Positions 1,479-34,531 are shown, numbered from the stretch's first letter. The stretch is 34,531 nucleotides of DNA from a virus (IMGVR_UViG_3300027932_000003:1-34531), one strand, 5' to 3'. The notes: a model not told the origin generated them from the sequence alone. Program-made: numbers and translations.

Positions 1479-1516
1479 CATAATTATAAGTCGAAAAATG
1501 AAGACATGAAAAGGTA

Positions 1517-1536
1517 GAGAAAGATTTAAATATGAG
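1517..1536 (+). promoter_or_regulatory. BRE/TATA promoter (gagaaagaTTTAAATAtgag) inside the ITR, driving 1567..1764
   Basis: Purine-rich stretch plus TTTAAATA box about 40 nt upstream of ATG 1567; same module recurs at about 1937..1954, 3241..3260 and 3968..3986. The mirrored copy (32996..33015) sits about 39 nt upstream of ATG 32966 on the minus strand. Confidence 0.5.
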
Positions 1537-1566
1537 TTTTTACATATATGATATTGTGAATAAAAG

Positions 1567-1764
1567 ATGATGAGCATAAAAACAAAAATAAGTAAAAAAC
1601 AAGCGAAAGAATTAGTTTCGCAGTTTTTGCAAAATTCAAATTATATTTCGTATAAAAGTTCAACTAACTTTTATTATTCATTTACTGATAAAAAAGCTTC
1701 AGTCGATATAAAGATTTATGAATTTGATAAGAAATATTTTTTAGAAATTATCACATTAAGTTAG
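1567..1764 (+). CDS. hypothetical protein (65 aa)
   Basis: ATG ORF preceded by the ITR-embedded TATA module; T-rich tail downstream. Confidence 0.45.
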   Translation: MMSIKTKISKKQAKELVSQFLQNSNYISYKSSTNFYYSFTDKKASVDIKIYEFDKKYFLEIITLS

Positions 1765-1840
1765 TTTTTTAATTTTTTATTTCTATTTCTTATTTTTCTC
1801 ATAATTTGTTATTTTTTATTTTCTGCAATTATGTTAAATT

Positions 1841-1860
1841 TTTTTCAAGTTTGAGATAAT
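1841..1860 (+). repeat. T-tract + palindromic element, copy 1 (tttttCAAGtTTGAGAtaat)
   Basis: Recurring motif 3' of plus-strand genes; see also 2403..2425, 3893..3912, 13608..13629, 17214..17237. Confidence 0.4.
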
Positions 1861-1987
1861 ATTACTAAATATAGAGAAATTGTGTGTTGTATAGTCTAAT
1901 GATAAAAATAACGTAAGATATAAAGGTAAAAGTATAAAGAAAACTTTAAATATGAGAATGAAGATATGTATATTGGTGAAAAGAAAA

Positions 1988-3194: not shown

Positions 3195-3293
3195 ATAAAT
3201 TTTCACTAAAAATATGGCGTAAGCTACAAAGATAAAAGTTTAGAGAAAACTTTAAATATAAGTTTAGACATATGTTATATTGAGGTAAGAAGA

Positions 3294-3461
3294 ATGAAAG
3301 AAGTAAAAGTTGGAAATTCGAGATATTATATAAGTTCAAGAGATGATGAGATAAGTGTAATACATGAGTTAGTTCAAAAAGGTTACTCCATAAGTCAAAT
3401 AGCTAGTTTGTTGAATATTTCAGAAAGAAAAATTAAAAAATACTTAGAAGATTGTTGGTAA
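3294..3461 (+). CDS. small helix-turn-helix DNA-binding protein (55 aa)
   Basis: Hand-translated: MKEVKVGNSRYYISSRDDEISVIHELVQKGYSISQIASLLNISERKIKKYLEDCW; GYSISQIASLLNISERKIKKYL is a typical HTH; TATA module at 3241..3260 and gaggt 8 nt upstream of the ATG; missed by the ORF track. Confidence 0.45.
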   Translation: MKEVKVGNSRYYISSRDDEISVIHELVQKGYSISQIASLLNISERKIKKYLEDCW

Positions 3462-3642
3462 GTTATTTCTTTTTTTGATTTTTAATTTTTTCTTTTCTTT
3501 TTATTTTTATGTTTTATTATTTTTAGTTTTAAAATATCAATACAAAATTTTCGATAAATTTTGGAATTGAAAGATATGAATGTAAAAGTTTGAAGAAAAT
3601 TTTATAAAGGGCAAATGACATAATGTAAAATTGGAGGTAAAT

Positions 3643-3843
3643 ATGAATTGTGTAACAATTGAACAAAAAGGCAAATATACGTACATAAAATGTAAAAAAT
3701 GTGGAAATGTGCTAATTACAAATGATCCAGAATTATCGTTAGCTCCAATAAAAAATAAACAATTAATATCAATATCTAGCTGTGAGCATTTTCAAGTTAT
3801 TGAAAATGAAGATACAGTCGAAATTATATCAAAACAAAGTTAA
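3643..3843 (+). CDS. hypothetical protein with Cys-rich putative metal-binding motifs (66 aa)
   Basis: ORF track starts at TTG 3631; ATG 3643 is preceded by ggaggt (Shine-Dalgarno-like) and lies about 40 nt from the TATA at about 3597; contains CKKCG and SSCEH. Confidence 0.45.
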   Translation: MNCVTIEQKGKYTYIKCKKCGNVLITNDPELSLAPIKNKQLISISSCEHFQVIENEDTVEIISKQS

Positions 3844-3892
3844 TTTTTTTCTTTTTTAGTTTTAACTTTCTATTTTCTATTTTTATGTTCCA

Positions 3893-3912
3893 TTTTTCTC
3901 AAGTTTGATATA
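3893..3912 (+). repeat. T-tract + palindromic element, copy 3 (tttttcTCAAGTTTGATAta)
   Basis: Same motif family, one mismatch in the right arm of the palindrome. Confidence 0.35.
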
Positions 3913-4014
3913 TTATTTCTAAACTGGAGGAATTAAAAAAGCGTAGGATAGAAACGTAAAACTGTAGAGAAAACTTTATATATAAGTTTTTGCATATTAG
4001 ATATTAGTGATAAC

Positions 4015-4251
4015 ATGAGTCAAAAAGTTAGGTTAGGCAGAAAAGAAAAAGCAGTTTTAGATTTTTTAAAAGAACATGCAGAAGGCGTTTGGAAGACCGA
4101 TTTAATTAATCATTTTAGCTGGGCTAGTCGTTATGATAATGTTATGAACAAAAGGTTACAACAAATGCAGAAAAAAGGTCTAATAATCATAAAAAGTGAG
4201 ATAAATCCGGAAAGCGGAAGAAGTAAGCAAAGAGTTTATTTAAAACAATAA
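4015..4251 (+). CDS. winged-helix DNA-binding protein (78 aa), paralog of 13704..13928
   Basis: Hand alignment with the 74-aa product of 13704..13928 shows shared R-GxxE, W, NKR, KKGL, NPxxGR and VYL positions; TATA module at 3968..3986. Confidence 0.6.
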   Translation: MSQKVRLGRKEKAVLDFLKEHAEGVWKTDLINHFSWASRYDNVMNKRLQQMQKKGLIIIKSEINPESGRSKQRVYLKQ

Positions 4252-4284
4252 TTTTTTTCTTTAATCTTTTTCTTTTTTTTAGTT

Positions 4285-4476
4285 TTATTTTAATTCTCTA
4301 ATTAAATCTTCTATCTCATAAATAATATCTTCTATTTTTTCAATTTTTTCTTTTTCAAATTCATGTTCTTCATAGTTCTCAATAAGTTTCATACTTTCTT
4401 CTAGTTTTTCTTTTGCATTTTGTAATTCTGTAATTGCAGATTCTAAAGCTGATATTATTTCATTGTAATCTATCAT
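4285..4476 (-). CDS. hypothetical acidic coiled-coil protein (63 aa)
   Basis: ATG ORF with aagaggtg upstream; last gene of a leftward gene string. Confidence 0.45.
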   Translation of the reverse strand: MIDYNEIISALESAITELQNAKEKLEESMKLIENYEEHEFEKEKIEKIEDIIYEIEDLIRELK

Positions 4477-4479
4477 TTT

Positions 4480-4746
4480 TTACACCTCTTTTATTCTTTT
4501 CCAAACCTTTCCAATTGTTACACTTATATCAATTGACATTACAGAAAACCAAATTTCAAAATTTAATAGTTTATTGTTAATTTCTAAATAGCCAGCAATT
4601 TTATTTTTATTTTTTGTATAAAATATTATTCTTGGTTTTTCGTTAAAAATAAAAGCTTTATTTAGTAGATTTAAAATATCTTCTTCTCTCATATTTTCAA
4701 TTTTGTTTTTTGTTTTTTCCATTTGCTCCAAAAATTTTTCACTCAT
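4480..4746 (-). CDS. hypothetical protein (88 aa)
   Basis: ATG ORF; own promoter tttttatatGTCATAtaatac on the minus strand at about 4765..4790. Confidence 0.5.
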   Translation of the reverse strand: MSEKFLEQMEKTKNKIENMREEDILNLLNKAFIFNEKPRIIFYTKNKNKIAGYLEINNKLLNFEIWFSVMSIDISVTIGKVWKRIKEV

Positions 4747-4798
4747 GTTTTCACAATTACTGTTGTATTATATGACATATAAAAAGATTTTTATTTTT

Positions 4799-5416
4799 TC
4801 AGAATAAAGAGCCAAAACATTTCGCTTTAAACTCACAGGCTTTACATAGATAATTATTCGCGCCAGGTATAGTTTTATAATCTTGTAATTTCATAAATTC
4901 TTTAAATTTCTTAATCCAGTCAATTGCTTTTTGCAGATATGTTCCAATTATAGTTTTATTTATTTGGAATTGTTTAACTTCTTTATTTATTCTATTTAAA
5001 TATATGATATAGACATTATCAATTTTATAGTTTTGTTGTTGTAATAAGTAATAGTAAATTGAGACTTGGTAAAGATGATATTCTTTGATATTAAAGTAAT
5101 TACTTGTGATAGTTTTTAGTTCTATAAGATCATTATTGCAAATTAAGTCAATTCTGCCTGATATTTTTAATCCTTCAATTTCGCCTTTTACTTCAACTTC
5201 AGATTTACAGCCTAGTTTTTCGACAAAATAATTTTCTATTCTCTCGTGATGTTGTTCTCCTAGGTCAAGGCTAATTTCATTTACTGCTTTCTCAAACTCA
5301 AATTTTCTACTAAAATAGCTTTTTCTAAAGCAAATTCCAATTTCGCTAGGAAATATTGTATTCTCTGGATATTTCATTTTGAAGCTTTGTTTTACAAATT
5401 CTTCATAATTTGTCAT
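4799..5416 (-). CDS. Cas4-like / RecB-family nuclease (205 aa)
   Basis: GRIDLI (motif II), IELK (motif III), [11 protein letters not shown] (QxxxY) and C-terminal C-x2-C-x5-C ([10 protein letters not shown]) plus an N-terminal Cys; aggtgg upstream of the ATG; follows the ATPase gene, as in the conserved rudivirus SSB-helicase-nuclease operon. Confidence 0.7.
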
Positions 5417-5418
5417 TT

Positions 5419-6726
5419 TTAACCACCTAAATTACTAAATCTCATTAAGTTTATTATTCTATTACAAATTTCTTCATTTTGTACTTTTCCAATTTGTAAA
5501 TCTATGTCTAATGCCTGTAATAGAATTTGAATATCGATACTTTGCTCTTGTCTTCTGGATTCTAAATTTTCGCAATTTACATAGTTATGAATACTATTTA
5601 TCTTCTGTTGAATTAATTCAATTAATGCTTTTAAAATTGAAGGATAAAGAACTCTTGCATTTATAATTTTATCGTAAGTTTTCTTAATTGCTAATTGAAT
5701 AATATGAATTCTATCTAATATTGCAGAAGTGAAAATTTCATAATTTTGTAGATAGTCTTCTAAATCTGGAGTTACTAATTTATTAATTGTATATGCATAT
5801 GGATTTCCAGCGTAAATAATTGGAATACATTTTTGTATAGTTGCTGATTTTGATTCTGTTCCAGCTCCTCTTGTCCAAATACAATTTTCAATTCCAGTTG
5901 ATAGAGTTGAATTTATAGTATTTAGTTCTTTTGTTGAAAAACCATCTTTCCAATTTTGAATTTCATCAAATATCAAACCGTTTGATAGAAATACAGCTCC
6001 ATACATATTGTTTCGAGCATCATATACCAAATTGGCATAAGTTGGAGCTTCCGTGTAATATCTAAAATTGAAAACTTCTTGTAAAATCATGAAAGTTGTA
6101 GTTTTTCCAGTTCCTCTATTAGAAATTTCAATATAATTTATTTGTCTTTTGGTAATTGGAGATTTGAAAAGTGGGAATAGTCTTGGAAGAAAGAGAAATA
6201 TATCATTTATTTCCATTTTAGTCGGGTCATATCCAAAACTTTGCAATAAAAGTGCATAAGTTGAATATTCTGAATTTGCTAATTCAAATAATTCTTTTGC
6301 AATTTCATAATTGTTGGGTGGCTCAATTGAATAAATATCATAAATACGCCAACCTTCTATACCTTTTCTAATTTTGACAAACATGTAACTTGTAATTAAA
6401 TTATAGAAATTTTCAGGATTATCAGCTATAAAATGTGGATCGAAATTTGCAGTAAAACCATTTTGAAATTTTGCTATAACTTCATCATCTTTTACTTTAA
6501 ACTGTATAATTTTAGAGATAAATTTCACTTCATCATTAAAAAGCAAATAAGATTGAAAATATTGTTGATCAATTCCGCGTTTGTAAGCTTTTAAAATTTC
6601 AATTTTCTTCCTTTCTTCAATTTGTTTTCCAGAGAGAATTATATTTAAAACTCTTTCTGTATCTCTTGGATTATAAAAAAAAGAATGAGATTTTATTTTT
6701 TCAAGAAGTTGATTTGAACTACTCAT
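5419..6726 (-). CDS. P-loop ATPase, putative helicase (435 aa)
   Basis: Walker A NRGTGKTT; size and position between the SSB-like and nuclease genes. Confidence 0.7.
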
Positions 6727-6751
6727 AAAAAAAATGATAACTTATGACGTT

Positions 6752-7165
6752 TTAAAATTCGTCTTCAACATTCTTTTTCTCTTTCTTTTTCTGTGTTTTT
6801 TCCTCCTTTTGGCTTGATTTTTGTTTTTCTTCTTCTTCTTCTGTGTCTATTTCTTCTTCTTGAACAGCATTATTATTCCTTGGCGTAAATTTTACATATT
6901 CGTTTAATAAGTCAGCATATTTATTTAAGAATTCTGAAATTAATCTTAAATCTTCAGCATCATTTGCGGTTATTCCAAGTTGTTTTCTAAAATTATTAGC
7001 AGAATGGATAGTCATTGAGTATCTAACTTTTCCGTCTTGTGGTATTGCATTTAACTGTACAACTATTCTTTTTAGACCTTTGATTTTTAAAATTCTACTG
7101 GCTATTTTATTATTTTCTTTAGCTTGTTTACCTAACTCATCTATTATTTCCTTCAAACTTGCCAT
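6752..7165 (-). CDS. putative ssDNA-binding protein with acidic C-terminal tail (137 aa)
   Basis: Acidic tail EEEIDTEEEEE; first gene of the leftward operon; promoter aaatatGTCATAttataag on the minus strand at about 7184..7208. Function inferred from operon context, not from a motif. Confidence 0.5.
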   Translation of the reverse strand: MASLKEIIDELGKQAKENNKIASRILKIKGLKRIVVQLNAIPQDGKVRYSMTIHSANNFRKQLGITANDAEDLRLISEFLNKYADLLNEYVKFTPRNNNAVQEEEIDTEEEEEKQKSSQKEEKTQKKKEKKNVEDEF

Positions 7166-7265
7166 CTTTTTCGCCTTATTAATAACTTATAATATGACAT
7201 ATTTATATATTTATAAAAGTACAAGCCATGATATTTAGAAGTTTAAAAAAAGATGAAAAAAATAT

Positions 7266-7538
7266 TTAAATTAACTTAAAGAATATAGATCTTATTAATT
7301 TAGATACTTTCATATTATATTTATTTGCTAATTCTTCAAGTTTTTGATAATATAATTCATCAATTGTGAAAAAAACACGCTCATCATAAATTTCACTGAT
7401 TTCAATTTCTTTAAATTCTTTTTGAGAATTTAGAATTTTATCTATTTCTTGTTTTATTGTCTCTCTTTTCTCATAAAAAAGATTTTTATACTTTGATGGT
7501 ATACGTAATTCGATATACTTATTTCTTTGCTTTTTCAT
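7266..7538 (-). CDS. hypothetical protein, possible ribbon-helix-helix fold (90 aa)
   Basis: C-terminal half RVFFTIDELYYQKLEELANKYNMKVSKLIRSIF fits a strand-helix-turn-helix (RHH) pattern; divergent from Rep across a shared 70-bp promoter region. Confidence 0.4.
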   Translation of the reverse strand: MKKQRNKYIELRIPSKYKNLFYEKRETIKQEIDKILNSQKEFKEIEISEIYDERVFFTIDELYYQKLEELANKYNMKVSKLIRSIFFKLI

Positions 7539-7581
7539 AATTTTAGATATTTTCAGGCATTATATAAACATGACATATACA

Positions 7582-7593
7582 TTTAAATGTCAG
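7582..7593 (+). promoter_or_regulatory. Rep promoter: TTTAAATGTCAG (TATA followed directly by GTC)
   Basis: TATA box abutting GTC about 20 nt upstream of the Rep start codon. Confidence 0.5.
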
Positions 7594-7609
7594 GTTTTCA
7601 ATTGCATAT

Positions 7610-7954
7610 GTGAACGGTAAAAAAGTTTTTAGCTATCATTTTCTTTATGTTTACACGTATTTTATTACTATTGCTACAAATTATCACTATAATGATACGA
7701 CAAAAATCTATAAAAAATTCAGACAATATATTTATAATCATGATAAAAATTCTCATATTTTTTCAGTAAAAGAATATACAACAAGATTACATGGTCTACA
7801 TTATCATGTTTTAGTTTTCACGAATAAAAGGCTTGACTATTCCAGAGTTCATAAGCAAATGCCAAAACATTCAGATATAAATATTCAATTAGTTCCAAAA
7901 ACAAAAAATGATATAAAAAAAGTTTTAACTTATATGTTAAAAAATCAAAAATAA
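7610..7954 (+). CDS. HUH-superfamily rolling-circle replication initiator Rep (114 aa)
   Basis: LHGLHYHVLVF (HUH motif: H-hydrophobic-H followed by hydrophobics) and VLTYMLK (YxxK, Tyr at residue 108 by my count). The frame has no ATG before residue 84, so the start is GTG at 7610, right at the expected leaderless position. Confidence 0.75.
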   Translation: MNGKKVFSYHFLYVYTYFITIATNYHYNDTTKIYKKFRQYIYNHDKNSHIFSVKEYTTRLHGLHYHVLVFTNKRLDYSRVHKQMPKHSDINIQLVPKTKNDIKKVLTYMLKNQK

Positions 7955-7955
7955 A

Positions 7956-8243
7956 TTACTTAGATTGAGGTTGTTGATTTTGTTCAGCTTTTTTCTGTGC
8001 TAATGCATTTACATCTCTTAATGTATCCATATTCAAGAGTGAATTAATTCCAAGGGTTGTAGTATCTTTAATTGATTCAACTGCTGAAATTGTAGATTTT
8101 GTCATCTGATCTACTGCAATTTGGAATGATTGATTTGCTTGCTTTTGATTGTAGAGATATACTACTTCTCCAACAACATAGCTAGCTATTAGAACTCCCA
8201 TCAGTACTAAAAATCCTTCTAAAGCTGTTTGGCTTAGTGTCAT
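7956..8243 (-). CDS. small membrane protein, N-terminal TM helix plus helical domain (95 aa); PVAP-like candidate
   Basis: One hydrophobic segment (ALEGFLVLMGVLIASYVVGEVVYLY) followed by about 65 polar, helix-prone residues; architecture resembles the roughly 98-aa rudivirus pyramid egress protein. Assignment is tentative. Confidence 0.5.
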   Translation of the reverse strand: MTLSQTALEGFLVLMGVLIASYVVGEVVYLYNQKQANQSFQIAVDQMTKSTISAVESIKDTTTLGINSLLNMDTLRDVNALAQKKAEQNQQPQSK

Positions 8244-8341
8244 TTCAATTTTATTATATGCAAATTACTTAGTAATAAAGTTTATGCAAAAAATCGAAAT
8301 ATATAAATATGTCATAATGTATGTTTATAAAATGAGGAAAA

Positions 8342-8503
8342 ATGATGGAGAAAGTTAAAAAGGAAAGAACAGTTTTCGGTATAAATATAGATAAAGAATT
8401 AAAAAGAAAATTAAAAGTATATTGTGCAAATAATAATATCACGCTAACAGAAGCAATTGAAGAAGCTTTAGAAGAATATTTACAGAAAAGGGGAACTAAA
8501 TGA
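8342..8503 (+). CDS. ribbon-helix-helix (CopG/Arc-like) DNA-binding protein (53 aa)
   Basis: Hand-translated: [53 protein letters not shown]; promoter atataaataTGTCATAat at 8301..8318; missed by the ORF track. Confidence 0.55.
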
Positions 8504-8646
8504 GAGTAATAACGTTTAAAGTTGAAGAAGATCTTTTGCAAAAACTTGATAAATATGCTATGAATCACAAGCTAAACAGATCTGAAGTAATTAGGCAAGC
8601 ATTAATGGAATTCTTGAGACCAAATACTACAACATATGATAGTTAA
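8500..8646 (+). CDS. ribbon-helix-helix DNA-binding protein (48 aa)
   Basis: Hand-translated: [48 protein letters not shown]; textbook RHH pattern; ATG overlaps the stop of the upstream RHH gene (ATGA). Confidence 0.55.
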
Positions 8647-8701
8647 AAATAAATTAATATATCTTTTTTTATTTTTCATTTTTTTACAAATATATTTCTA
8701 G

Positions 8702-8944
8702 TCATTTCTTTCTTTTTAATCTTTCAATTTCTGCTTTAAGTTCATCAATTTCATCATAAATATCTGCAAAGATATCATAAATTACTACATATATAATTGC
8801 AAAAATTCCAGATGCAAAAAATGTTGATATTATAACTATTGGCATATTTTTTACAAGAATTCCTAATGACATGACTATTAAAGCTAAAGACATTAAAGCT
8901 AAAAAAATTAAGAAAACTATTATTTCACGAAATTCTCTTTCCAT
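8702..8944 (-). CDS. two-TM membrane protein with C-terminal coiled-coil tail (80 aa), paralog A
   Basis: Two hydrophobic segments then ELKAEIERLKRKK; own promoter aaataaatttGTCAGaaaacg on the minus strand. Confidence 0.5.
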   Translation of the reverse strand: MEREFREIIVFLIFLALMSLALIVMSLGILVKNMPIVIISTFFASGIFAIIYVVIYDIFADIYDEIDELKAEIERLKRKK

Positions 8945-8956
8945 TTTTTCTCATTT

Positions 8957-9232
8957 TCATTTTTCGTTTTCTGACAAATTTATTTCTTGTTTTCTCTCTC
9001 TTTTTAATCTTTCAATTTCTAGTTCAAGTTTATTAATTCTTGTATCTAAATCATCTATCAAATCTATTATCCAAGTAAAAATTATTGCCAACAAAATTGA
9101 TACAATTGCGGAATATAAAACTATATTTTGTAGATTTTTAGATAAAATTCCTTCAGAAAATATTAAAAGTATATTAAGTATTACAATTGAAAGCATTATA
9201 GAAATATATAACCTAAAAGCTAATTTGCCCAT
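8957..9232 (-). CDS. two-TM membrane protein with C-terminal coiled-coil tail (91 aa), paralog B
   Basis: Same architecture, ending KLELEIERLKRERK; own promoter tatatatttGTCAGataacg on the minus strand. Confidence 0.5.
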   Translation of the reverse strand: MGKLAFRLYISIMLSIVILNILLIFSEGILSKNLQNIVLYSAIVSILLAIIFTWIIDLIDDLDTRINKLELEIERLKRERKQEINLSENEK

Positions 9233-9287
9233 ACTTTGTCATTCTTATTTTTCGTTATCTGACAAATATATAAGTTTCTATTTCAAA

Positions 9288-9434
9288 TTATTTGGAAGAT
9301 TTTTGATTAAGCTCATAATAAGCCTCAATTAACATTTTTCTAAATTCTTCTAAATCTTCTTTACTTTCAATTATCAAAAATTTTTCTCCATCTTTTTCTT
9401 CAATTCTCATATATGAATATTTGTTATTAGACAT
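9288..9434 (-). CDS. small hypothetical protein (48 aa)
   Basis: Hand-translated: MSNNKYSYMRIEEKDGEKFLIIESKEDLEEFRKMLIEAYYELNQKSSK; 32 nt downstream of gene 9467..9766 on the same strand; no separate promoter seen. Confidence 0.25.
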   Translation of the reverse strand: MSNNKYSYMRIEEKDGEKFLIIESKEDLEEFRKMLIEAYYELNQKSSK

Positions 9435-9466
9435 TTAAAAAACTTTACTTTATCCTTAATTCTGAA

Positions 9467-9766
9467 TTAATGTATTTCATTATTAATTTCACCGCAAAAA
9501 ACTACAATATTAAACATATTTCTATTATATCTCCAATTTATTTTAATATATTGTGGATATTTAAAAGTTTTTATTATATATTTTAAAATTCCAGTTCCTT
9601 TTTTCTCATATCTTTGTTTTGTAATATTCATCCTAATTTTTATAGTTATTAAATTTTCATCTTCTAAAACTAAGTAATCGTAAACATTATCAAAGTAACG
9701 TATTTTCAACCAATCGAATAATTGAAGTGTATATTTTTTACATTCTAATTTGATGAATTCGTCCAT
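9467..9766 (-). CDS. hypothetical protein (99 aa)
   Basis: ATG ORF; promoter atttaattGTCAAattatg on the minus strand. Confidence 0.5.
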   Translation of the reverse strand: MDEFIKLECKKYTLQLFDWLKIRYFDNVYDYLVLEDENLITIKIRMNITKQRYEKKGTGILKYIIKTFKYPQYIKINWRYNRNMFNIVVFCGEINNEIH

Positions 9767-10002
9767 GTTTTAATTTTCATAATTTGACAATTAAATAATT
9801 TTTTGTTACTTTACGTATAGTATAATATAGAATATGCGGAATTAGAAATTATAACAAAAATTACAACTCAGCATATATATTATATAATTTATATAGTTTT
9901 TTCTTTAAATGATGACTCAATTTCATCAACTTATATACATTATATTACATATACGACGTGAAAATTTATATTGTAGAAATTAAAATTTATAATTGACCAA
10001 AA

Positions 10003-10407
10003 ATGGCAAAAGGAAGAACACCAAGGTCCTATAGCCAAAGGTATGCAAAATGGTCAGCTAAATTTGCATCATTTTCAAATCCTACCGTAGCATCTACAAT
10101 TTTAAGTAATGTTTCGCCAGTTGCACAGCAAAATTTCCAAACTAATGTACCAAAGTTTACTAGTGTAAATGAACAAGTTTCTAGCGTATTGTCAGAATAT
10201 GGAATTACTGGCCCTAACAGGGCGATTTACCAAGGTTTCGGTCTTAAGGTAGCTAGAGCTTTAAATAGGTTGGGAGGAGGGCCAGCACTTGTTAACATGA
10301 TAAATGGACTAAAAGCATATTATATTTCAGCATTTAATGCTAATCCAACTGTTCTAGATGCAGTGACAAATATAATCACCGGTTCGCCAACTGGATATGT
10401 AAGCTAA
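10003..10407 (+). CDS. major capsid (coat) protein, rudivirus type (134 aa)
   Basis: Length and N-terminus (MAKGRTPRSYSQRYAKW...) match my recollection of the 134-aa SIRV coat protein; isolated monocistronic gene with a 235-bp upstream region and a long T-rich tail (10408..10518). Confidence 0.85.
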   Translation: MAKGRTPRSYSQRYAKWSAKFASFSNPTVASTILSNVSPVAQQNFQTNVPKFTSVNEQVSSVLSEYGITGPNRAIYQGFGLKVARALNRLGGGPALVNMINGLKAYYISAFNANPTVLDAVTNIITGSPTGYVS

Positions 10408-10518
10408 AAAATTATAGAATATCTTTTAAGCTATTTTATTTTTTTAATTTTTCTTTTTCAGAACTTTAGTTCAAATTTAAAATTTAAAAAAATTTACTTT
10501 TAACTTTTTAACTTGAAA

Positions 10519-10707
10519 TTAATCATTATCATCAATTTTTGTTTCTATATACTCATAATTTGTTTTACTTATTCTTTTACAATCACTAATTTTTACATTA
10601 GGATGATGTTTTTTCAAATGTGTAATCATAGCTTTTCTAGTTCTCGTTAAATGTTGACAAATTGGACATTCAAATAAAAAGATACCCATAGTGTTTTTTA
10701 GTGTCAT
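10519..10707 (-). CDS. C2H2 zinc-finger protein (62 aa)
   Basis: CPICQHLTRTRKAMITHLKKHH = C-x2-C-x12-H-x4-H. Confidence 0.6.
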   Translation of the reverse strand: MTLKNTMGIFLFECPICQHLTRTRKAMITHLKKHHPNVKISDCKRISKTNYEYIETKIDDND

Positions 10708-10725
10708 GACGTTTAAAAGCTTAAT

Positions 10726-11733
10726 ATGAAAACCGTAATTTTGACTATGAATTATTCATCTATAAGAAATGTTTCAGAAGATATTGCACAAGTTTTACGA
10801 AAAAATGGTGAAATTGTTACAATTTCAACAAATCCATATTTAATTCCACAATCTGATAAATTAATAATTTTTATGCCATTTCATCCTCCATCTCTAAATC
10901 CATATTTGTATGCATTTAGAGAATTTAAAGGTAAGAAGTATTTTTATACAACTTGTGATGGTTTACCTAATACAAATATTGTAAATCAATATCTATTAGA
11001 AAATATAATATTTATACCAAATTCAAAGTTTACAGCTCAGAATTTACAAGAAGTTGGCTTAAATGTTGAATTGCCAGTTTTCCATGGTATAAATTTTGAA
11101 ATTGTAGAAAAAGCTGAACAATTAGCTATTCAATTGAAACAAAAATTAGATGCTGATTTTCCAAATGTTGTAAAGTTTGGAATTGTTTCAGGTTTAACTA
11201 AAAGAAAAAATATGGATCTTATGATAAGAGTTTTTCAAGAAACAAATACTAAAATTCCAGAATTAGCCAAGAAAATCCATTTCTTTGTAATTTCTCATAA
11301 AGCATTTAAAGATTTTGAAGTTCCTGAAAATGTGCATTTTGTTAGTGAATTTGGACTAAATCCTAGAGAATATATATTTGCATTTTATTCAACTATGGAT
11401 TTTGTAATTGTTCCTTCTGGAACTGAGGGCTTTGGACTTCCAGTTTTAGAAAGCATGGCTATGGGAACTCCAGTAATTCACCAATTAATGCCTCCATTTG
11501 ATGAATTTACATCATGGCAATGGAATTTACTAATTAAATCATCAGAAATTGAAGAATATTACGATAAAACGCATGGGCAAAAATGGAGAATTCATAAATT
11601 TGATATTCATGACATGATAAATGCAATATTAATAGCTTCAGAACTTCAAGATAGAGATGAGAGAAGTCAAAATTTAAGAGAATTAGCAAAAAGATACGAT
11701 ATTAATAATTTATATGTTAGATTTTTAGAGTGA
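10726..11733 (+). CDS. GT-B fold glycosyltransferase (GT4-like) (335 aa)
   Basis: SGTEGFGLPVLESMAMGTPVI contains the E-x7-E motif of retaining GT4 enzymes; immediately downstream of the coat gene region. Confidence 0.8.
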   Translation: MKTVILTMNYSSIRNVSEDIAQVLRKNGEIVTISTNPYLIPQSDKLIIFMPFHPPSLNPYLYAFREFKGKKYFYTTCDGLPNTNIVNQYLLENIIFIPNSKFTAQNLQEVGLNVELPVFHGINFEIVEKAEQLAIQLKQKLDADFPNVVKFGIVSGLTKRKNMDLMIRVFQETNTKIPELAKKIHFFVISHKAFKDFEVPENVHFVSEFGLNPREYIFAFYSTMDFVIVPSGTEGFGLPVLESMAMGTPVIHQLMPPFDEFTSWQWNLLIKSSEIEEYYDKTHGQKWRIHKFDIHDMINAILIASELQDRDERSQNLRELAKRYDINNLYVRFLE

Positions 11734-11796
11734 CTTCAAGAGCTGATTAATCGAAAAATTTATGTATGTCATAATATATATAATTGTTGTGAGAGT

Positions 11797-11922
11797 ATGA
11801 GAGAGATAATAATCGAATGTAAAGATTTTACAAGATTTCATGTAAAAGAAAAGAAAGGTATACAAATTAAAAATATAATACAAATGTGTCAAAGTTACAA
11901 TCTAGAAGTTAAGGTGTATTAA
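11797..11922 (+). CDS. small hypothetical protein (41 aa)
   Basis: Hand-translated: MREIIIECKDFTRFHVKEKKGIQIKNIIQMCQSYNLEVKVY; preceded by tatgtatGTCATAatatatat; ends 3 nt before the next ATG. Weak. Confidence 0.25.
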   Translation: MREIIIECKDFTRFHVKEKKGIQIKNIIQMCQSYNLEVKVY

Positions 11923-11925
11923 AAA

Positions 11926-12225
11926 ATGCCAAAATTTTATTATTGCTATTTATGTAAAACTACACTTGTTGGGAAAAAACAATTTAAAAAGCATGCACAA
12001 ATACACTTTAAAAACAATAGATGTCCATATTGCAATATGAAAACTAAGAATTTGAATATTCATTTAGCATATTATCATCTAGGATATAGAAGAAAAGCAA
12101 TTTTATTAAGAGATTTAGCAATTTTGTGCAAAGAAGCAAATAGTACAAATATTTTGAAAGATGAAAATCTAAAACTTGATAATTACATCAAATTCAATAT
12201 ACAAAGAATGATGAAAAAGTTATAA
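11926..12225 (+). CDS. C2H2 zinc-finger protein (99 aa)
   Basis: CYLCKTTLVGKKQFKKHAQIH = C-x2-C-x12-H-x3-H, plus a second finger-like CPYCNMKTKNLNIHLAYYH. Confidence 0.6.
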   Translation: MPKFYYCYLCKTTLVGKKQFKKHAQIHFKNNRCPYCNMKTKNLNIHLAYYHLGYRRKAILLRDLAILCKEANSTNILKDENLKLDNYIKFNIQRMMKKL

Positions 12226-12249
12226 TTCTTTTTTTAGTTTGTATTTTTT

Positions 12250-12447
12250 TCACTTCTTATTTTCTGAGTTTTTGTTTAGCAAAACTGATATATCTTTGCT
12301 AATTTCTTCAGATATATTTTTAATTATTTCTAAAGCTTCCAATATTTCATCTTCTTTAAGATCTTCATTTTCATTAATTTCGGTAATTAGACCAAGTTGT
12401 AATTCAAGTAAAATCTCAAATTTTATTAAATCTATCTTTTTTATCAT
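12250..12447 (-). CDS. hypothetical acidic helical protein (65 aa)
   Basis: ATG ORF; promoter atatttGTCATAttttaaattt on the minus strand; preferred over the overlapping low-complexity plus-strand ORF 12239..12463. Confidence 0.45.
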   Translation of the reverse strand: MIKKIDLIKFEILLELQLGLITEINENEDLKEDEILEALEIIKNISEEISKDISVLLNKNSENKK

Positions 12448-12484
12448 TTTCTCACGTAGATAGAAATTTAAAATATGACAAATA

Positions 12485-12712
12485 TCAAGTTTTGCCTAAT
12501 CTCATTTTTATTTCTTCTATTTCTTTTTTAAGTTCATTTTGAGAAATCTTTAATTCCTCAATCTGAATTTTCAGATTTTGTAATTCTGAATTTACTATCT
12601 CTTTAACAGCATCTTTCAGAGCTTGTTTTATCTTAAGATAAAGTTGAACAATTGCGAATAATGTAGTTACAAATGTAGAAATTATAGTTAGAATTAAAGT
12701 TATTTCACTCAT
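12485..12712 (-). CDS. membrane-anchored coiled-coil protein (75 aa)
   Basis: N-terminal hydrophobic helix (ITLILTIISTFVTTLFAIVQLYL) then heptad-like ELQNLKIQIEELKISQNELKKEIEEIKMRL; overlaps the upstream gene by 8 nt. Confidence 0.5.
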   Translation of the reverse strand: MSEITLILTIISTFVTTLFAIVQLYLKIKQALKDAVKEIVNSELQNLKIQIEELKISQNELKKEIEEIKMRLGKT

Positions 12713-13088
12713 CTTTTATTCCCTCTAATTGATCTTCTAAATTATCTAAATTTAAATTTTCATCTTCTTTAAATTTTTGGTAAACAGAATCTACTTGTTT
12801 CGCGTAAGGCTGAGGATAAACTACGCGAAAATCTGCGATATCAATTCTACCAGTTTTAGGATCTTTAGCTATTAAAAATTGGAAATAGAAAGTAAATCCG
12901 GGGATATATAAATCTACAATTATGGGCAATTCTGAATTTTTTAAAACAATAATTGAATGTGGTAAATATTTTGATAATCCATAAATTTGACCTTGTAATT
13001 CTAATTCTCTAATTTTATCTATCGCGATTCTAACAGGGCCGAAAATATTCGCGAATTCATCTTTAACTTGCATAATTATATATTTCAT
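12705..13088 (-). CDS. hypothetical protein (127 aa)
   Basis: ATG ORF, first gene of a two-gene leftward unit. Confidence 0.55.
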   Translation of the reverse strand: MKYIIMQVKDEFANIFGPVRIAIDKIRELELQGQIYGLSKYLPHSIIVLKNSELPIIVDLYIPGFTFYFQFLIAKDPKTGRIDIADFRVVYPQPYAKQVDSVYQKFKEDENLNLDNLEDQLEGIKDE

Positions 13089-13175
13089 AAAACAAGAATA
13101 AATAAACTCAAAGCGAATTTGCTATATACATTATATTATGTATATTAGTTTGTTGTTTAATACGTAAAGCATGAG

Positions 13176-13198
13176 CGAAAGATTTATATATTTCGAAA
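13176..13198 (+). promoter_or_regulatory. Inverted-repeat-flanked TATA promoter (CGAAAgATTTATATAtTTCGaaa) for the zinc-finger gene 13223..13576
   Basis: CGAAA / TTTCG inverted repeat brackets the TATA box; identical 23-mer at 13656..13678. Confidence 0.5.
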
Positions 13199-13222
13199 AC
13201 GAATATTATCTTGGTGAAAAGA

Positions 13223-13576
13223 ATGAGAAGTCAAAAAACACAAAACAAAAGCCAAAACAAGTTACTTTTTTGTAAATTATGTTCTTTCGTAGCTACAAGT
13301 TATGAAGAATTAGATCATCATATAAAAATGAGTCATGAAGAATCAGATGATATTTCTGAAGAATTTCAAGTAATTTTTCTAAAGAAAAAAGACTATGAAG
13401 AGTATATGCGTAAAGAATATTTAAGAATTTGTAAAGGAGGAGGATGTATTATTAGACCACAAATTGATATTGAGAATGACAAAGATGAAATAAAACATTT
13501 ATACAAAGAATATTGTTCAACTTGTGAACTTAAGAAATATCTTCTAGCCGAATTAAAAGAAAACGGAAAAATGTGA
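13223..13576 (+). CDS. C2H2 zinc-finger protein (117 aa)
   Basis: ORF track starts at TTG 13211; first ATG is 13223, 37 nt from the TATA. CKLCSFVATSYEELDHHIKMSH = C-x2-C-x12-H-x4-H; additional C-x2-C (CSTC) near the C-terminus. Confidence 0.55.
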   Translation: MRSQKTQNKSQNKLLFCKLCSFVATSYEELDHHIKMSHEESDDISEEFQVIFLKKKDYEEYMRKEYLRICKGGGCIIRPQIDIENDKDEIKHLYKEYCSTCELKKYLLAELKENGKM

Positions 13577-13607
13577 ATTTATTAAGTCTTTATTTTTTTA
13601 TGCCCTA

Positions 13608-13629
13608 TTTTTTTCAAATTTGTATTAAT
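13608..13629 (+). repeat. T-tract + palindromic element, copy 4 (tttttttCAAATTTGtattaat)
   Basis: CAAATTTG palindrome after a T7 run, 3' of 13223..13576. Confidence 0.35.
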
Positions 13630-13655
13630 ATTTCTAATTTTTAACAAACAGAAAA

Positions 13656-13678
13656 CGAAAGATTTATATATTTCGAAA
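13656..13678 (+). promoter_or_regulatory. Inverted-repeat-flanked TATA promoter, second copy, for the winged-helix gene 13704..13928
   Basis: Same 23-mer as 13176..13198; 38 nt from ATG 13704. Confidence 0.5.
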
Positions 13679-13703
13679 GCATATATTATAATGATGAAAG
13701 AGA

Positions 13704-13928
13704 ATGAGGATAGGTAAAGAAGAAGAAAAAATTTTAGAATATCTTCAAAAAAATGGAGATTCAGAGTGGTTAGATAAATTGAAAAGTACTTTTTCTCATA
13801 CTGTTGGATATAAAATAATTGTAAATAAAAGAATAAAGAATCTAGAGAAAAAAGGTCTAGTAAAAATTGTTTGGGAAAAGAATCCACAGACTGGAAGAAA
13901 TAAAAAGAAAGTGTATTTAGTAACTTAA
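13704..13928 (+). CDS. winged-helix DNA-binding protein (74 aa), paralog of 4015..4251
   Basis: See 4015..4251; conserved NKR, KKGL, NPxTGR and VYL positions. Confidence 0.6.
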   Translation: MRIGKEEEKILEYLQKNGDSEWLDKLKSTFSHTVGYKIIVNKRIKNLEKKGLVKIVWEKNPQTGRNKKKVYLVT

Positions 13929-13954
13929 AATGTAAAGAGATATAGGTGAAAAAA

Positions 13955-14170
13955 ATGAGTGTAGAAAAAGTTGAGCAGAAAATAATTGAAATAGCACATG
14001 AATTTGCTCAAAAATATGGAAAAGAAATCTTGGAATTAAGTGAAGATGAACTAATCTCATATCTAACATCATTTTTTAATTATGAAGAATGGTTGATTTT
14101 TAAACATAATGAAATAGAAATGTTAAGATTATTTTTGAAAACAGTAAAAGAAGATTTATCTAAATCTTAA
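13955..14170 (+). CDS. hypothetical protein (71 aa)
   Basis: ORF track starts at GTG 13946; ATG 13955 is preceded by aggtga; likely co-transcribed with 13704..13928. Confidence 0.45.
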   Translation: MSVEKVEQKIIEIAHEFAQKYGKEILELSEDELISYLTSFFNYEEWLIFKHNEIEMLRLFLKTVKEDLSKS

Positions 14171-14355
14171 GTTAATATTTTTAAAATTTTTTTCTTATCA
14201 ATCTTTTTATCAGTTTTGCAAGGTATATAAAATCCTTCATGTAAATCATACGGTTCACCATACCATAATTTTTTATTCAAATTACATGGCTCAGTATTCC
14301 AACCTTTCTTCTTTTTGATTATCATATTCTCAATCTTATTATCTACTCGCCACAT
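14167..14355 (-). CDS. hypothetical basic protein (62 aa)
   Basis: ATG ORF overlapping the 3' end of the large upstream gene by 17 nt; uncertain. Confidence 0.3.
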   Translation of the reverse strand: MWRVDNKIENMIIKKKKGWNTEPCNLNKKLWYGEPYDLHEGFYIPCKTDKKIDKKKILKILT

Positions 14356-15739
14356 TTTTAAAGTTTTTATAGTAGAAAATTGGCTTATATTGTTTAGCTT
14401 TTGTCGATTTTTGAGCTAATTTTATCGAATTTTCAACTTTTGCTTGACCTTGTAATTTCTCTCCAAGTTGTTGAGCAAATTGTAAATCAGCATTTGAAAT
14501 TCCATAAAATGACCATTTTGTCTTCCAATAATTCAAGAAATCAGAATATGATAATGTTCTTTTTCCAGAATTGTAACTATAATTTTGTTGATATGGATAT
14601 CTAGCAATTTCTAGAATTGCTGAAGCTACCATTTTAGCATACCAAATGTTTGAATACTTCTTATTCACAATTTGTTGAACATGTAAGAATTGTTGATATG
14701 TAACTGCATAATTTTCAATTTCTGAGCTATAAGTAATATTTATCCCACCGGGACTTGGATCATAAAGATGTAATTTAAACAAACTCCCAAAAATTGAAAT
14801 TACAGTTTTATCAGCAGTTAAAATTGTTATTAAATCTAATTGTGTAACATTATTAGGATTAAATTCAGGAATTAACATAGCAAAGTCAAGAGGAGTATAA
14901 TCTAATATCATTCCGAAAACATCAGCAAAATTTTGTAAAATCATATTATTCTCAAGTTGAACTTTATAAGTTGGAGAATTTTCAATTTCTGGAGCTAAAA
15001 TACACCTGTCTAACCATCCAACATCAAGGGCAAATCCACTATTAATTATCTCGTTTAAATTGGGAACAAATGAAACTACAAATTTAGCTAAATCTGGAAG
15101 TTGATTATAGTTTAAATTTAATGCATTTAGCAAATCACCAACTCCAGTATTTTGAATATTATTAAGTGAATAATTATCAACATTTGGAATTTGAGTATTT
15201 CCAATTCCTAAAGTTTGTAAGTTAATACTAGTATTTGTAGTTGTTAAGCTATTAAAATATTGTTCTATTTTTTCACATGCTTGATTTCTATTTATAATTG
15301 TATTAGCTGGTTGAAAGACAGAGAGATCAAAATAAGTTTCATCAAAAACGGCTGGTTGATATAAAATTGAGCAAAGATCTACATAATTATCATAAAATTG
15401 TATAAAGTTATTAACAAATTCAAGACCAGAAGTTTGACCATAAATTCCACTTTGACCTAATTGTAGAAAACTAAATGAATTTGTATTTGGATTAAATATT
15501 GAAATTGCTAAATTGTTTAATGATGAAAGTAAAGCTGAAATAATTGTAGCATATGCAATTCCATAATTAGTATTTATACCTGGAGGAATTTGAACATTTT
15601 CAAGTGGAGTTGGAAGAATTGATTCAACTCCAGCGTTAAACATTACAGAAAAAGCTGGAAATGTTTTTCTATTTAGTACTTTTTGATAAAGATGATATTT
15701 CATTTGTGCAATTGATCTTTGTCCTACTTTCCTACCCAT
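14339..15739 (-). CDS. putative minor virion structural protein, N/Q/S/T-rich (about 466 aa)
   Basis: ORF track start 15763 is TTG; first ATG is 15739 with ttttattttGAC about 22 nt upstream; composition and size resemble rudivirus minor structural proteins (from memory). Confidence 0.55.
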   Translation of the reverse strand: MGRKVGQRSIAQMKYHLYQKVLNRKTFPAFSVMFNAGVESILPTPLENVQIPPGINTNYGIAYATIISALLSSLNNLAISIFNPNTNSFSFLQLGQSGIYGQTSGLEFVNNFIQFYDNYVDLCSILYQPAVFDETYFDLSVFQPANTIINRNQACEKIEQYFNSLTTTNTSINLQTLGIGNTQIPNVDNYSLNNIQNTGVGDLLNALNLNYNQLPDLAKFVVSFVPNLNEIINSGFALDVGWLDRCILAPEIENSPTYKVQLENNMILQNFADVFGMILDYTPLDFAMLIPEFNPNNVTQLDLITILTADKTVISIFGSLFKLHLYDPSPGGINITYSSEIENYAVTYQQFLHVQQIVNKKYSNIWYAKMVASAILEIARYPYQQNYSYNSGKRTLSYSDFLNYWKTKWSFYGISNADLQFAQQLGEKLQGQAKVENSIKLAQKSTKAKQYKPIFYYKNFKNVASR

Positions 15740-15873
15740 AATTATTATATTTGTAAAAGTCAAAATAAAAACTTAATTCTAATATACAATATAATGTATA
15801 TCAGTTTTACTCTTTGATCTCATCATATTCAATTCATAAAATATATATTTGTCATAATTTGAGTTACGAATGT

Positions 15874-32992: not shown

Positions 32993-34531
32993 AAACTCAT
33001 ATTTAAATCTTTCTCTACCTTTTCATGTCTTCATTTTTCGACTTATAATTATGTTATTTTTGATGATCATTATATTTTCTTTCATAAATGACTTTCCCAT
33101 GAATTTTTAATACACCAGTTCTATCAAATTCAGCTAACGCATTCAAATACTCCTTGTAAGCTTTGATAATATAATCTATTCTATTATGCATTCTTTCTAA
33201 AATTTTTTTCTGCTCAGCAGTTAATTTATGTACTCTTGTCATTTTTTATCATCTACAAATCATCATATATTATATGACGAATATAAAACATTCTCTATCT
33301 CCTTAACTCTTATCGCCACCTCTCTCTATAGAGAACGTGTAAATTCTGTCTCTCCAATTTCTCTCATAACACCAAACATAAATTGTTTCCTAACGGTGAA
33401 AAATCCTAAAAAAACCTATTTTAGGTTTGACTATAATTTATTAATTATAAACTACTAACTACATAACTATATAATTATTATATTGAATAACTAGATAGTT
33501 TCCATATTCTCTAAATTATTAAATCTCCTTACAATTTTTACCATAAAATACTGATATAAATCCAAACTGTATACAGAATCTTCTATTGAATTGAAAGAAA
33601 AAAAGAAACTATATTTTACACTTGAACTACAAAACTATAATTATTATATTATAAACTACTAATTAGTAGTTAGCTAATTATATAATTATATAACTTCATA
33701 ATTATATAATTATCTAATTTAAATGTTAATAATAATATATATAAAAAAATAATAATAAGAAGAAAGATAATGCCCACTAACAATACTAAATGCTTTCTTC
33801 TGGTATATAAACTTTTCTTTCTAAACTTCCAATTTCTCCAACACTAAACGCAAAAAACTAACAACACATAACGATTTGAATAAATATAACAAATTAACAA
33901 TATGTTTAGTATCTTTCTAACTTTAAATTGAGGTTTTGGTTTGCTAGAATTAAGAAATTAAATAAATTATGAATATGTTTAGTAACTAAAAACTTTAAAT
34001 TGTGGGTTTGGTTCCCTCCAAATTATAAATTATAATATTATAGTTAGTAGTTATTAATATCCACAAATTAACATTTATTACAAATTTCCAAAGTTTGAAT
34101 TTGCAAATTTTATATTACAAATTTCACTAAATGACAGATTAATTGTAATTTAGGAATTTAGAAAATTAGTATTTTTTATCATAGTTGAAAAATTATTTGG
34201 AAATGTAGAATTATTTGGAATTTAGGAATTTCCAATTTTTTAACTTTTTTGCAGAAAATGATAGATTATTTCAAATTTAGGAAATTAGGAATTTACAATT
34301 TTTCTCATTTTTTGCACAATTTACGCAAAATGACAGATTAATTGGAATTTTGGAAGTTTGAATTTTTTGCACCGCTCCAATTATTATTTGGAGGTGTAGA
34401 ATTAATTGGAATTTCCAATTTATTGCGAAAGTTGGGAAATTTGCGAAAAAAACGAAAAAAACGAAAGAAATTGGAATTTTCAATTTTTTGCATTAGTTGT
34501 GAAATTTTCGCAGAAAATGAAAAAAACTACA
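32993..34531. repeat. Right inverted terminal repeat (ITR)
   Basis: Mirror copy of 1..1539; the window ends with the reverse complement of its first bases. Confidence 0.85.
33054..33242 (-). CDS. ITR-encoded hypothetical protein (62 aa), right copy
   Basis: Identical translation to 1290..1478; mirrored promoter. Confidence 0.5.
   Translation of the reverse strand: MTRVHKLTAEQKKILERMHNRIDYIIKAYKEYLNALAEFDRTGVLKIHGKVIYERKYNDHQK

Follow-up and report, generated by a model that had tools for sequence, protein, structure and literature searches.

Two small winged-helix genes in a Usarudivirus-like genome

The viral contig IMGVR_UViG_3300027932_000003:1-34531, referred to below as the window at its full length of 34,531 nucleotides (nt), contains two open reading frames (ORFs) whose products are small proteins with a predicted winged helix-turn-helix (wHTH) fold. 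We refer to the 78-amino acid (aa) product of 4015..4251 as paralog A and to the 74-aa product of 13704..13928 as paralog B. Both ORFs are present where an initial annotation of this sequence had placed them, and their genomic contexts are as it described, with A being the final + strand gene of the left arm and B lying mid-genome, directly after a C2H2 zinc-finger gene.

The window is a near-complete linear genome of a Usarudivirus-like virus, a rod-shaped archaeal virus resembling the Sulfolobus islandicus rod-shaped viruses (SIRVs). Marker genes include those for a coat protein, a Cas4-like nuclease, an ATPase, and a glycosyltransferase, and a megablast search with 3500..14500 matched SIRV8/9 at 88% DNA identity and 90-92% query coverage, with other Yellowstone SIRVs (genus Usarudivirus) at 84-87% identity. 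The ends of the window are inverted-orientation repeats of each other (repeat families D3 and D5-D7), which indicates that the contig is near-complete and makes the term left arm meaningful. The whole window gave no match to Rfam, and a scan for sigma-70 promoters and terminators was disregarded since this is an archaeal virus. Comparison loci were taken from SIRV8 (L008), SIRV4 (L009), SIRV5 (L024), and metagenomic contigs (L002-L006 and L011-L023). The features relevant to the two paralogs are as follows.

3294..3461, + strand: Aca8 homolog, a 55-aa helix-turn-helix (HTH) protein, with a promoter at 3217..3281 of the same family as that of A
3941..4005, + strand: promoter of A, of a 65-nt left-arm family (Aca8-type early regulatory sequence), with the TATA box at 3975..3982 within AAAACTT-N7-AAGTTTT (3970..3990)
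4015..4251, + strand: paralog A, predicted minimal winged-helix protein of 78 aa, ortholog of SIRV8 gp11, SIRV4 gp03, and SIRV5 gp03; phrog_9113; ADG.02
13176..13219, + strand: promoter module copy 1, for the C2H2 zinc-finger gene, with a transcription factor B recognition element (BRE)/TATA core and the palindrome TTTCGAAA between TATA box and start
13223..13576, + strand: C2H2 zinc-finger gene, 117 aa from ATG 13223, ortholog of SIRV8 gp35; ADG.04; phrog_18124
13656..13699, + strand: promoter module copy 2, for B, orthologous to the module driving the 71-aa gene in SIRV8 (gp36) and SIRV5 (gp30)
13704..13928, + strand: paralog B, predicted minimal winged-helix protein of 74 aa, of a separate lineage found only in metagenomic rudivirus contigs
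13929..13954, + strand: remnant of a third module copy, with flanks GTAAAGAG ... GGTGAAAAAAATG retained, the 36-nt BRE/TATA core deleted, and no T-tract
13955..14170, + strand: 71-aa gene, phrog_21593, ortholog of SIRV8 gp36 and SIRV5 gp30, without a promoter of its own

Homology and predicted fold of A and B

A and B are homologous. The full-length similarity first seen by eye is confirmed by BLASTP, which aligns the two without gaps at 27 identical and 52 similar positions out of 72 (E 5e-19), and the Smith-Waterman score of 154 compares with 27.2 +/- 5.1 for shuffled sequences (n=5000, maximum 55; z = 24.8). Each has the other as its sole match among the ORFs of 50 aa or more in the window; the runner-up scores were 40-44. 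An alignment of 12 B-type and 17 A-type proteins contains 18 invariant columns and no internal gaps. Both genes are under purifying selection, with ratios of nonsynonymous to synonymous substitution rates (dN/dS) of 0.12-0.22 for A and B genes and of 0.13-0.19 within the B type, at dS values of 0.6-0.8.

The description of the pair as duplicated regulators does not hold in its simple sense, since B belongs to an old, separate lineage. A recent intragenomic copy of A was considered as the origin of B and rejected. Identity between B and every A-type protein is about 41%, compared with 78% within the B type; the B lineage has diversified independently and occurs in no sequenced isolate, and a neighbor-joining tree, which is built on about 74 columns and weakly resolved, places B outside the clade formed by A and a third sublineage, A', described below.

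AlphaFold2 models built on the family alignment had predicted local distance difference test scores of 91.7 for B and 86.4 for A. In both models the elements are ordered H1-b1-H2-H3-b2-b3, the canonical winged-helix topology, so that structure prediction supports the earlier assignment of both products to this fold. Foldseek matches with a probability of about 1.0 were predominantly wHTH domains, and the best PDB matches were DNA-bound MarR, MftR, and MepR, PadR/LmrR, the Sulfolobus Lrs14 protein AbfR2, TFE-alpha, and Stf76. The model of B superposes on the BFVD model of the A ortholog of SIRV11 with a template modeling (TM) score of 0.95 and a root-mean-square deviation (rmsd) of 0.9.

A more specific expectation, that these would be wHTH proteins of the MarR/PadR type, stands for the core and fails for the rest. 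The DNA-binding core (H1-H3 and the beta-wing) is like that of MarR and PadR proteins, which are the top structural matches, DNA-bound complexes included, but the models hold this core alone, with neither the N- and C-terminal dimerization helices of MarR nor the C-terminal helix of PadR. MarR proteins are about 140 aa long with a helical dimer interface, and A and B are, at 74-78 aa, half as long. Pfam thresholds were not reached either: MarR and MarR_2 did not match A or B at the gathering score, MarR_2 was touched by just 2 of the 29 family members (E 1e-3), and PadR scored 16.2 bits with B against a gathering score of 27 bits and did not match A.

The only PDB structural match of comparable size was Stf76 (76 aa, pSSVx; PDB 2mlg), with TM scores of 0.69-0.71 on query length and 0.68-0.69 on target length and an rmsd of 1.7-1.8. 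Stf76 and ORF80 of pRN1 resemble A and B in being small, basic, bare wHTH proteins of Sulfolobales mobile elements. They have no dimerization helices, are monomeric in solution, and form a 2:1 complex on DNA, where they bind repeated sites in their own promoters, one of these at -14 to -28 (PMC4027180). In the comparison of Stf76 with A and B, own-promoter binding is demonstrated for Stf76 alone. The likeness is also one of structure without detectable sequence similarity: querying all PDB sequences at E up to 10 with A, B, or the family profile gave insignificant matches only and did not return 2mlg. The rudiviral family has a wing motif of its own, E-x-N-P-E-[TS]-G-R-x-K.

The signature of Z-alpha domains (Asn/Tyr in helix 3 and Pro-Pro-x-Trp in the wing) is absent from A and B, in which the Tyr position is occupied by Q and K, respectively, and no equivalent wing Trp is found. 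The family profile gave a weak match (E 2.7e-4) to P0088, a metagenomic protein of 141 aa with two Z-alpha-like repeats (NRCLYxMLNKGLV followed by PPxWQY). The resemblance is limited to helix 3 and the glycine turn that follows it.

A family of rudiviral proteins

Both paralogs match the phrog_9113 profile, A at 6.4e-42 over residues 1-78 and B at 1.1e-18 over residues 1-72; this group is catalogued with unknown function. A profile search of 1.84 billion representative proteins recovered 22 clusters only (E up to 1e-3), and all 20 of the 20 IMG/VR loci were rudivirus-like. No cellular relative was found in 185,579 bacterial and archaeal species, represented by one genome each, using a pattern search and tblastn, which very distant relatives could escape. 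SIRV2 contains no family member by a search of all six frames with the family hidden Markov model (E up to 10), and ORF98 of ARV1, annotated as a putative transcriptional regulator, is a distant one.

Orthologs of A, 67-83% identical and in the same left-arm position, are present in every SIRV4-11 genome and in the isolates V3, V60, and V65. All North American SIRVs have conserved the wHTH family. The supplement of Bhoobalan-Chitty et al. 2024 lists the A orthologs together with ARV1 gp38 as "ADG.02, putative transcriptional regulator (MarR...)", predicted to be early/anti-defence from the upstream regulatory sequence, and its members are not discussed in the main text (PMC11065993). A second candidate wHTH family, ADG.03, which appears to bear the same MarR note in that supplement, was rejected: SIRV5 gp57 misses the family profile and looks unrelated, and the note is probably a table artefact.

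The third sublineage, A', is about 50% identical to A. In SIRV4 and SIRV5 it is found next to A as a tandem gene, and in SIRV8 it has a right-arm location. Its copies are the following.

L008, 32954..33199: SIRV8 gp54
L009, 2911..3189: SIRV4 gp04
L024, 3088..3366: SIRV5 gp04

SIRV4 gp04 and SIRV8 gp54 are missing from the published ADG tables. The presence of A' in SIRV4, SIRV5, and SIRV8 indicates that a second family copy, of varying lineage and location, is common in the genus.

Every B-type protein has a length of 74 aa; the proteins are 77-100% identical to one another and form 16 clusters from many samples. All come from metagenomic contigs with rudiviral neighbors, and no B ortholog was found in sequenced isolates or cultured SIRVs. 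The syntenic spot in cultured SIRVs was examined for one and yielded none, as SIRV8 and SIRV5 run directly from the zinc-finger gene to the 71-aa gene and SIRV4 lacks both. In contig L004 (325..756) a frameshifted or truncated B (50 aa from TTG) is followed by a truncated zinc-finger gene (48 aa), which suggests that the two genes can be lost together. Measured against phrog_9113 and ADG.02, A is a direct ortholog with the same left-arm place and the same early-type promoter. B also matches the profile without gaps but differs in its lineage, its mid-genome position, its promoter class, and its absence from sequenced isolates. Taken together, these comparisons indicate that A is already catalogued and that B represents a new lineage of the same virus-only family.

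A separate observation concerns the rate at which A has changed. A and its SIRV8 ortholog (L008 5075..5323) share 74% protein identity at a dS of about 2, and the flanking genome has about 88% DNA identity. This excess divergence suggests either allele replacement by recombination or faster evolution of A.

Promoters of A and B

The promoter of A belongs to a 65-nt family (D1) with five high-scoring copies in the window, at 1491..1555, 1911..1975, 3217..3281, 3941..4005, and, in the right arm, 32993..33017 (- strand). The copy at 3217 drives the 55-aa HTH protein, whose 55% identity to the C-terminal 53 residues of SIRV2 ORF83a/gp01 identifies it as an Aca8 homolog; SIRV8 gp09 is listed as Aca8 by Bhoobalan-Chitty et al. 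2024 (PMC11065993). The RefSeq label "terminase small subunit" on the SIRV8 ortholog of this protein is almost certainly wrong. Sharing a promoter family with the Aca8 homolog would place A in the Aca8-type early set. On the D1 matrix the promoter of A scores 56 bits, a value that is partly circular since the five-site matrix includes the site of A itself. The inverted repeat AAAACT-N9-AGTTTT around the TATA box occurs only in the copies of the Aca8 homolog and A, and it is also found in SIRV8 and SIRV4. A has a promoter to itself, is followed downstream of its stop codon by a T-rich stretch, and is monocistronic; its neighbors have no known anti-CRISPR function. Aca8 (SIRV2 gp01/gp54), a putative regulator of the anti-CRISPR-associated kind in rudiviruses, is a small early-expressed HTH protein of the genome arms, and its homolog in the window shares with A the promoter family and the inverted repeat at the TATA box, but it is of an unrelated sequence family and 55 aa long, and neither A nor B is an Aca8 homolog.

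B is served by a different promoter class. The initial annotation reported a promoter module shared by B and the zinc-finger gene, and this is borne out, with CGAAAGATTTATATATTTCGAAA occurring exactly twice in the window, at 13176..13198 and 13656..13678, where 0 occurrences would be expected by chance. The repeat spans 44 nt at 86% identity (family D20). The palindrome TTTCGAAA contained in it is present in two copies with 1.9 expected, so it is not above chance, and only the full 23-nt repeat is significant. The promoter of B has the BRE/TATA core GAAAGATTTAWATAT in common with the family of A. The region between TATA box and start differs, that of B containing the palindrome, and the flanks score negative on the D1 matrix, which is overfitted to its five sites. 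In this genome the B-class module drives only the zinc-finger gene and B, the latter together with the 71-aa gene. The zinc-finger protein itself falls below the Pfam gathering score for zf-C2H2 (best E 4.7e-5), with a visible C-x2-C...H-x3-H motif, and its start is most likely ATG 13223, as in the SIRV8 ortholog (MRSQKTQ...), rather than TTG 13211.

The palindrome, CGAAA-N10-TTTCG or TTTCGAAA, was considered as a binding site for B and rejected for lack of support. It is intact upstream of the zinc-finger gene in SIRV8, which has no B, and TCTCT or TTTAG stands in its place in L002, L005, L006, and L004, which carry B. The same comparison goes against the proposal that B regulates the zinc-finger gene through the shared module, since SIRV8 and SIRV5 contain module and palindrome without B. 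What the shared module shows is that B and the zinc-finger gene are regulated together; it does not make B the regulator.

A division of the two paralogs into early and late regulators is likewise not upheld by the promoters. The strong BRE/TATA core is the same at both, and Bhoobalan-Chitty et al. 2024, with a matrix of their own, scored the module in front of the zinc-finger ortholog in SIRV8 as early/anti-defence-type (ADG.04; PMC11065993). Judged by their promoters, both paralogs appear to be early.

Upstream of three otherwise different promoters, including those of A and B, lies a conserved T-rich element of about 50 nt, TTATGyyCyATTTTTyTCAArTTTGwATwwATATTwCTAA, at a distance of 20-60 nt. 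Possible roles are those of a terminator combined with some other element or of an antisense promoter. Its copies are the following.

Window: 1829..1879, 3883..3933, and 13598..13648
L008: ~15040..15090
L024: ~13590..13640

A module-bounded cassette hot spot around B

The region 12705..15763, between a 127-aa gene (- strand) and a 474-aa gene (- strand), is a hot spot of rearrangement in which the zinc-finger gene, B, and the 71-aa gene occur in at least 7 arrangements. The breakpoints lie within copies of one promoter module (loci L002-L006, L011-L023, L008, L009, and L024).

Zinc-finger gene, 71-aa gene: SIRV8, SIRV5
Zinc-finger gene, B, 71-aa gene: the window and at least 8 other contigs from several samples
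Zinc-finger gene, B, full module, 71-aa gene: L011, L012
B, 71-aa gene, no zinc-finger gene: L015
B then zinc-finger gene, with B behind an unrelated promoter: L002, L003, L005, L006
5' fragment of B, module, intact B: L013, L014
Neither zinc-finger gene nor B: SIRV4

In SIRV8 and SIRV5 the order is zinc-finger gene, intergenic region, module copy, and 71-aa gene. The window is collinear with this up to the start codon, where it continues into B and then into a 26-nt junction. This junction consists of the outer flanks, GTAAAGAG ... GGTGAAAAAAATG, of a third module copy, of which the 36-nt core is missing by comparison with L011, L012, L002, and L005. In the window, B has thereby taken the place behind the module that serves the 71-aa gene in SIRV8 and SIRV5. 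T-tracts follow A and the zinc-finger gene and none follows B. Deletion of the promoter core together with the lack of a T-tract after B suggests that B and the 71-aa gene (13955..14170) are probably co-transcribed. Across the arrangements, the module appears to behave as a portable promoter and as the joint of cassette exchange.

In L013 (~1795..1835) and L014 (~1700..1740) a 5' fragment of a B gene (…RIGKEEEKILEYF…) is located just upstream of the module and of an intact, more divergent B. The fragment is apparently the footprint of an earlier cassette exchange.

The paralog pair is a fairly ordinary extension of a catalogued family, and the module-bounded hot spot is the most interesting by-product of the analysis. 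It documents promoter-module-mediated gene shuffling in a rudivirus at base resolution, and such shuffling may help explain why early and anti-defence genes with unrelated coding sequences have near-identical regulatory sequences.

Proposed role of the two paralogs

To our knowledge, few proteins are known in the control of rudivirus transcription (SvtR, the host protein Sta1, and the putative Aca8). Residues in the H2-H3 turn, at the start of helix 3, and in the wing of winged-helix proteins usually read bases. Both paralogs are basic (isoelectric points of 9.9-10.2), and in B numbering the residues Y36, K42, and R43 of helix 3 and E58, N60, G64, and K67 of the wing are invariant in both types. 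The switches that distinguish the types, given as B to A, are H32W, T33A, K37D, and I44L in the H2-H3 turn and first turn of helix 3, and K68Q and K69R in the wing. With switches at base-reading positions, a difference in site specificity is the most economical inference.

With moderate confidence, we favor a joint reading in which A and B are an anciently diverged pair within a virus-only wHTH family, A being conserved and early, B an accessory cassette, and both early transcriptional modulators. The family consists of minimal (74-82 aa), basic winged-helix proteins, of which A and B are two old, diverged members. A is the conserved copy and would be expressed from its Aca8-type early promoter beside the Aca8 homolog and other small arm genes. 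B is an accessory cassette in a region where the zinc-finger gene, B, and the 71-aa gene each stand behind a copy of one portable, strong module, and where recombination between module copies would reorder, insert, and delete genes. In this genome B has come to lie behind the former module of the 71-aa gene, and a 36-nt deletion of the next core would then have produced a transcript of B and the 71-aa gene. By analogy with Stf76/ORF80, helix 3 and the wing motif E-x-N-P-E-[TS]-G-R-x-K of each protein would make sequence-specific contacts with DNA, on which the protein would probably dimerize. A and B would be expected to recognize different sites, as their switches are concentrated in the turn before the recognition helix and in the first turn of that helix. 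During early infection both would modulate transcription from viral or host promoters, most likely by repressing it. What the analysis shows of this reading is the homology, the fold, the distribution of the family, the purifying selection, the promoter classes, and the rearrangement of cassettes, from which DNA binding, differing specificity, a repressor role, early timing, and co-transcription are inferred. A and B would then be a clean pair of natural putative specificity variants, differing at the start of the recognition helix, and with the mid-genome copy being an accessory cassette, natural variants with and without B already exist.

Several points weigh against this joint reading. Matches to curated HTH families are marginal, HTH_24 aligning with B over 15 residues only and with A not at all. 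The tree that sets B apart from A is the weakly resolved one mentioned above. The palindrome does not track B across genomes and therefore gives no link between the two. The inverted repeat AAAACT-N9-AGTTTT at the promoter of A overlaps BRE and TATA box, and promoter sequence alone could have given rise to it. The early timing is extrapolated from SIRV2 transcriptomics by way of promoter similarity. Finally, the truncated B in L004 indicates that B is dispensable.

A broader proposal, which we regard as doubtful, would treat the strong promoter modules of about 60 nt as portable recombination joints of an integrase-free, integron-like hot spot, by which rudiviruses would put together, rearrange, and trade cassettes of single genes. 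The wHTH family (A, A', and B) would then be one of its diversifying cargo families, early effectors that reprogram host (defence) transcription and not housekeeping regulators of the virus.

It is unlikely that A, A', and B are anti-defence effectors in the narrower sense of early DNA binders that silence or decoy host defence loci, such as cas or toxin-antitoxin promoters, and do not regulate viral genes, with their lineage diversity reflecting an arms race. The A family is ADG.02 and the zinc-finger gene adjacent to B is ADG.04, both of them predicted, and copy number, lineage, and position vary among close relatives, with A' in tandem in SIRV4/5 or in the right arm in SIRV8 and B in the hot spot. 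The low protein identity of A to the SIRV8 copy relative to the surrounding DNA would also fit. However, the sole basis of the ADG label is promoter similarity, no host homolog was found in the 185,579 cellular genomes, and the dN/dS values of 0.12-0.22 are those of purifying selection and not an arms-race signature. Bhoobalan-Chitty et al. expect the HTH proteins of this set to be regulators (PMC11065993).

We consider quite improbable a temporal switch along the lines of the early-versus-late example in the initial annotation, in which A would control left-arm early genes and B mid-genome late or structural genes through shared modules. Archaeal repressors usually bind between TATA box and start, and it is in this interval that the two promoter classes differ; the recognition-helix residues differ between the A and B types as well. 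Against this stand the common core GAAAGATTTAWATAT, the early-type score of the zinc-finger module in SIRV8, and the unchanged module in SIRV8 and SIRV5, which lack B. Furthermore, the B-class module is not found at structural genes in this genome, and the absence of B from all cultured isolates argues that it is no required late switch.

That B is a decaying duplicate, a dispensable hitch-hiker in the hot spot with no function beyond that of A, is very unlikely. Its absence from cultured SIRVs, the truncated B beside a truncated zinc-finger gene in one contig, and the 5' fragments in L013 and L014 are all compatible with decay, but they are outweighed by 16 clusters of intact B-type proteins of exactly 74 aa, by dN/dS values of 0.13-0.19 at appreciable dS, and by the fixation of type-specific residues in the B lineage. 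Scarcely credible is a winged-helix mimic of a general factor (TFE-alpha/TFIIE-like) or a Z-alpha-like binder of unusual DNA conformations, for although the fold matches include winged helices of TFE-alpha, TFIIE, and RPC39, one A-type protein was named "transcription initiation factor IIE alpha subunit" by the Joint Genome Institute, and the profile weakly matches the tandem Z-alpha-like P0088, these matches are no better than dozens to ordinary repressors, a zinc-ribbon partner domain is lacking, and the Tyr and Trp of Z-alpha are not conserved.

Other features of the window

Three separate C2H2 zinc-finger genes are present in this 34.5-kb genome, at 10519..10707 (- strand), 11926..12225 (+ strand), and 13223..13576 (+ strand), and a 99-aa C2H2 zinc-finger product has two fingers. 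Two tandem genes at 8702..8944 and 8957..9232 (both - strand) encode paralogous small membrane proteins with a C-terminal coiled coil, their DNA forming a repeat of 82% identity over 85 nt, and the C-terminal segment of the product of 12485..12712 (- strand) resembles that of these two proteins.

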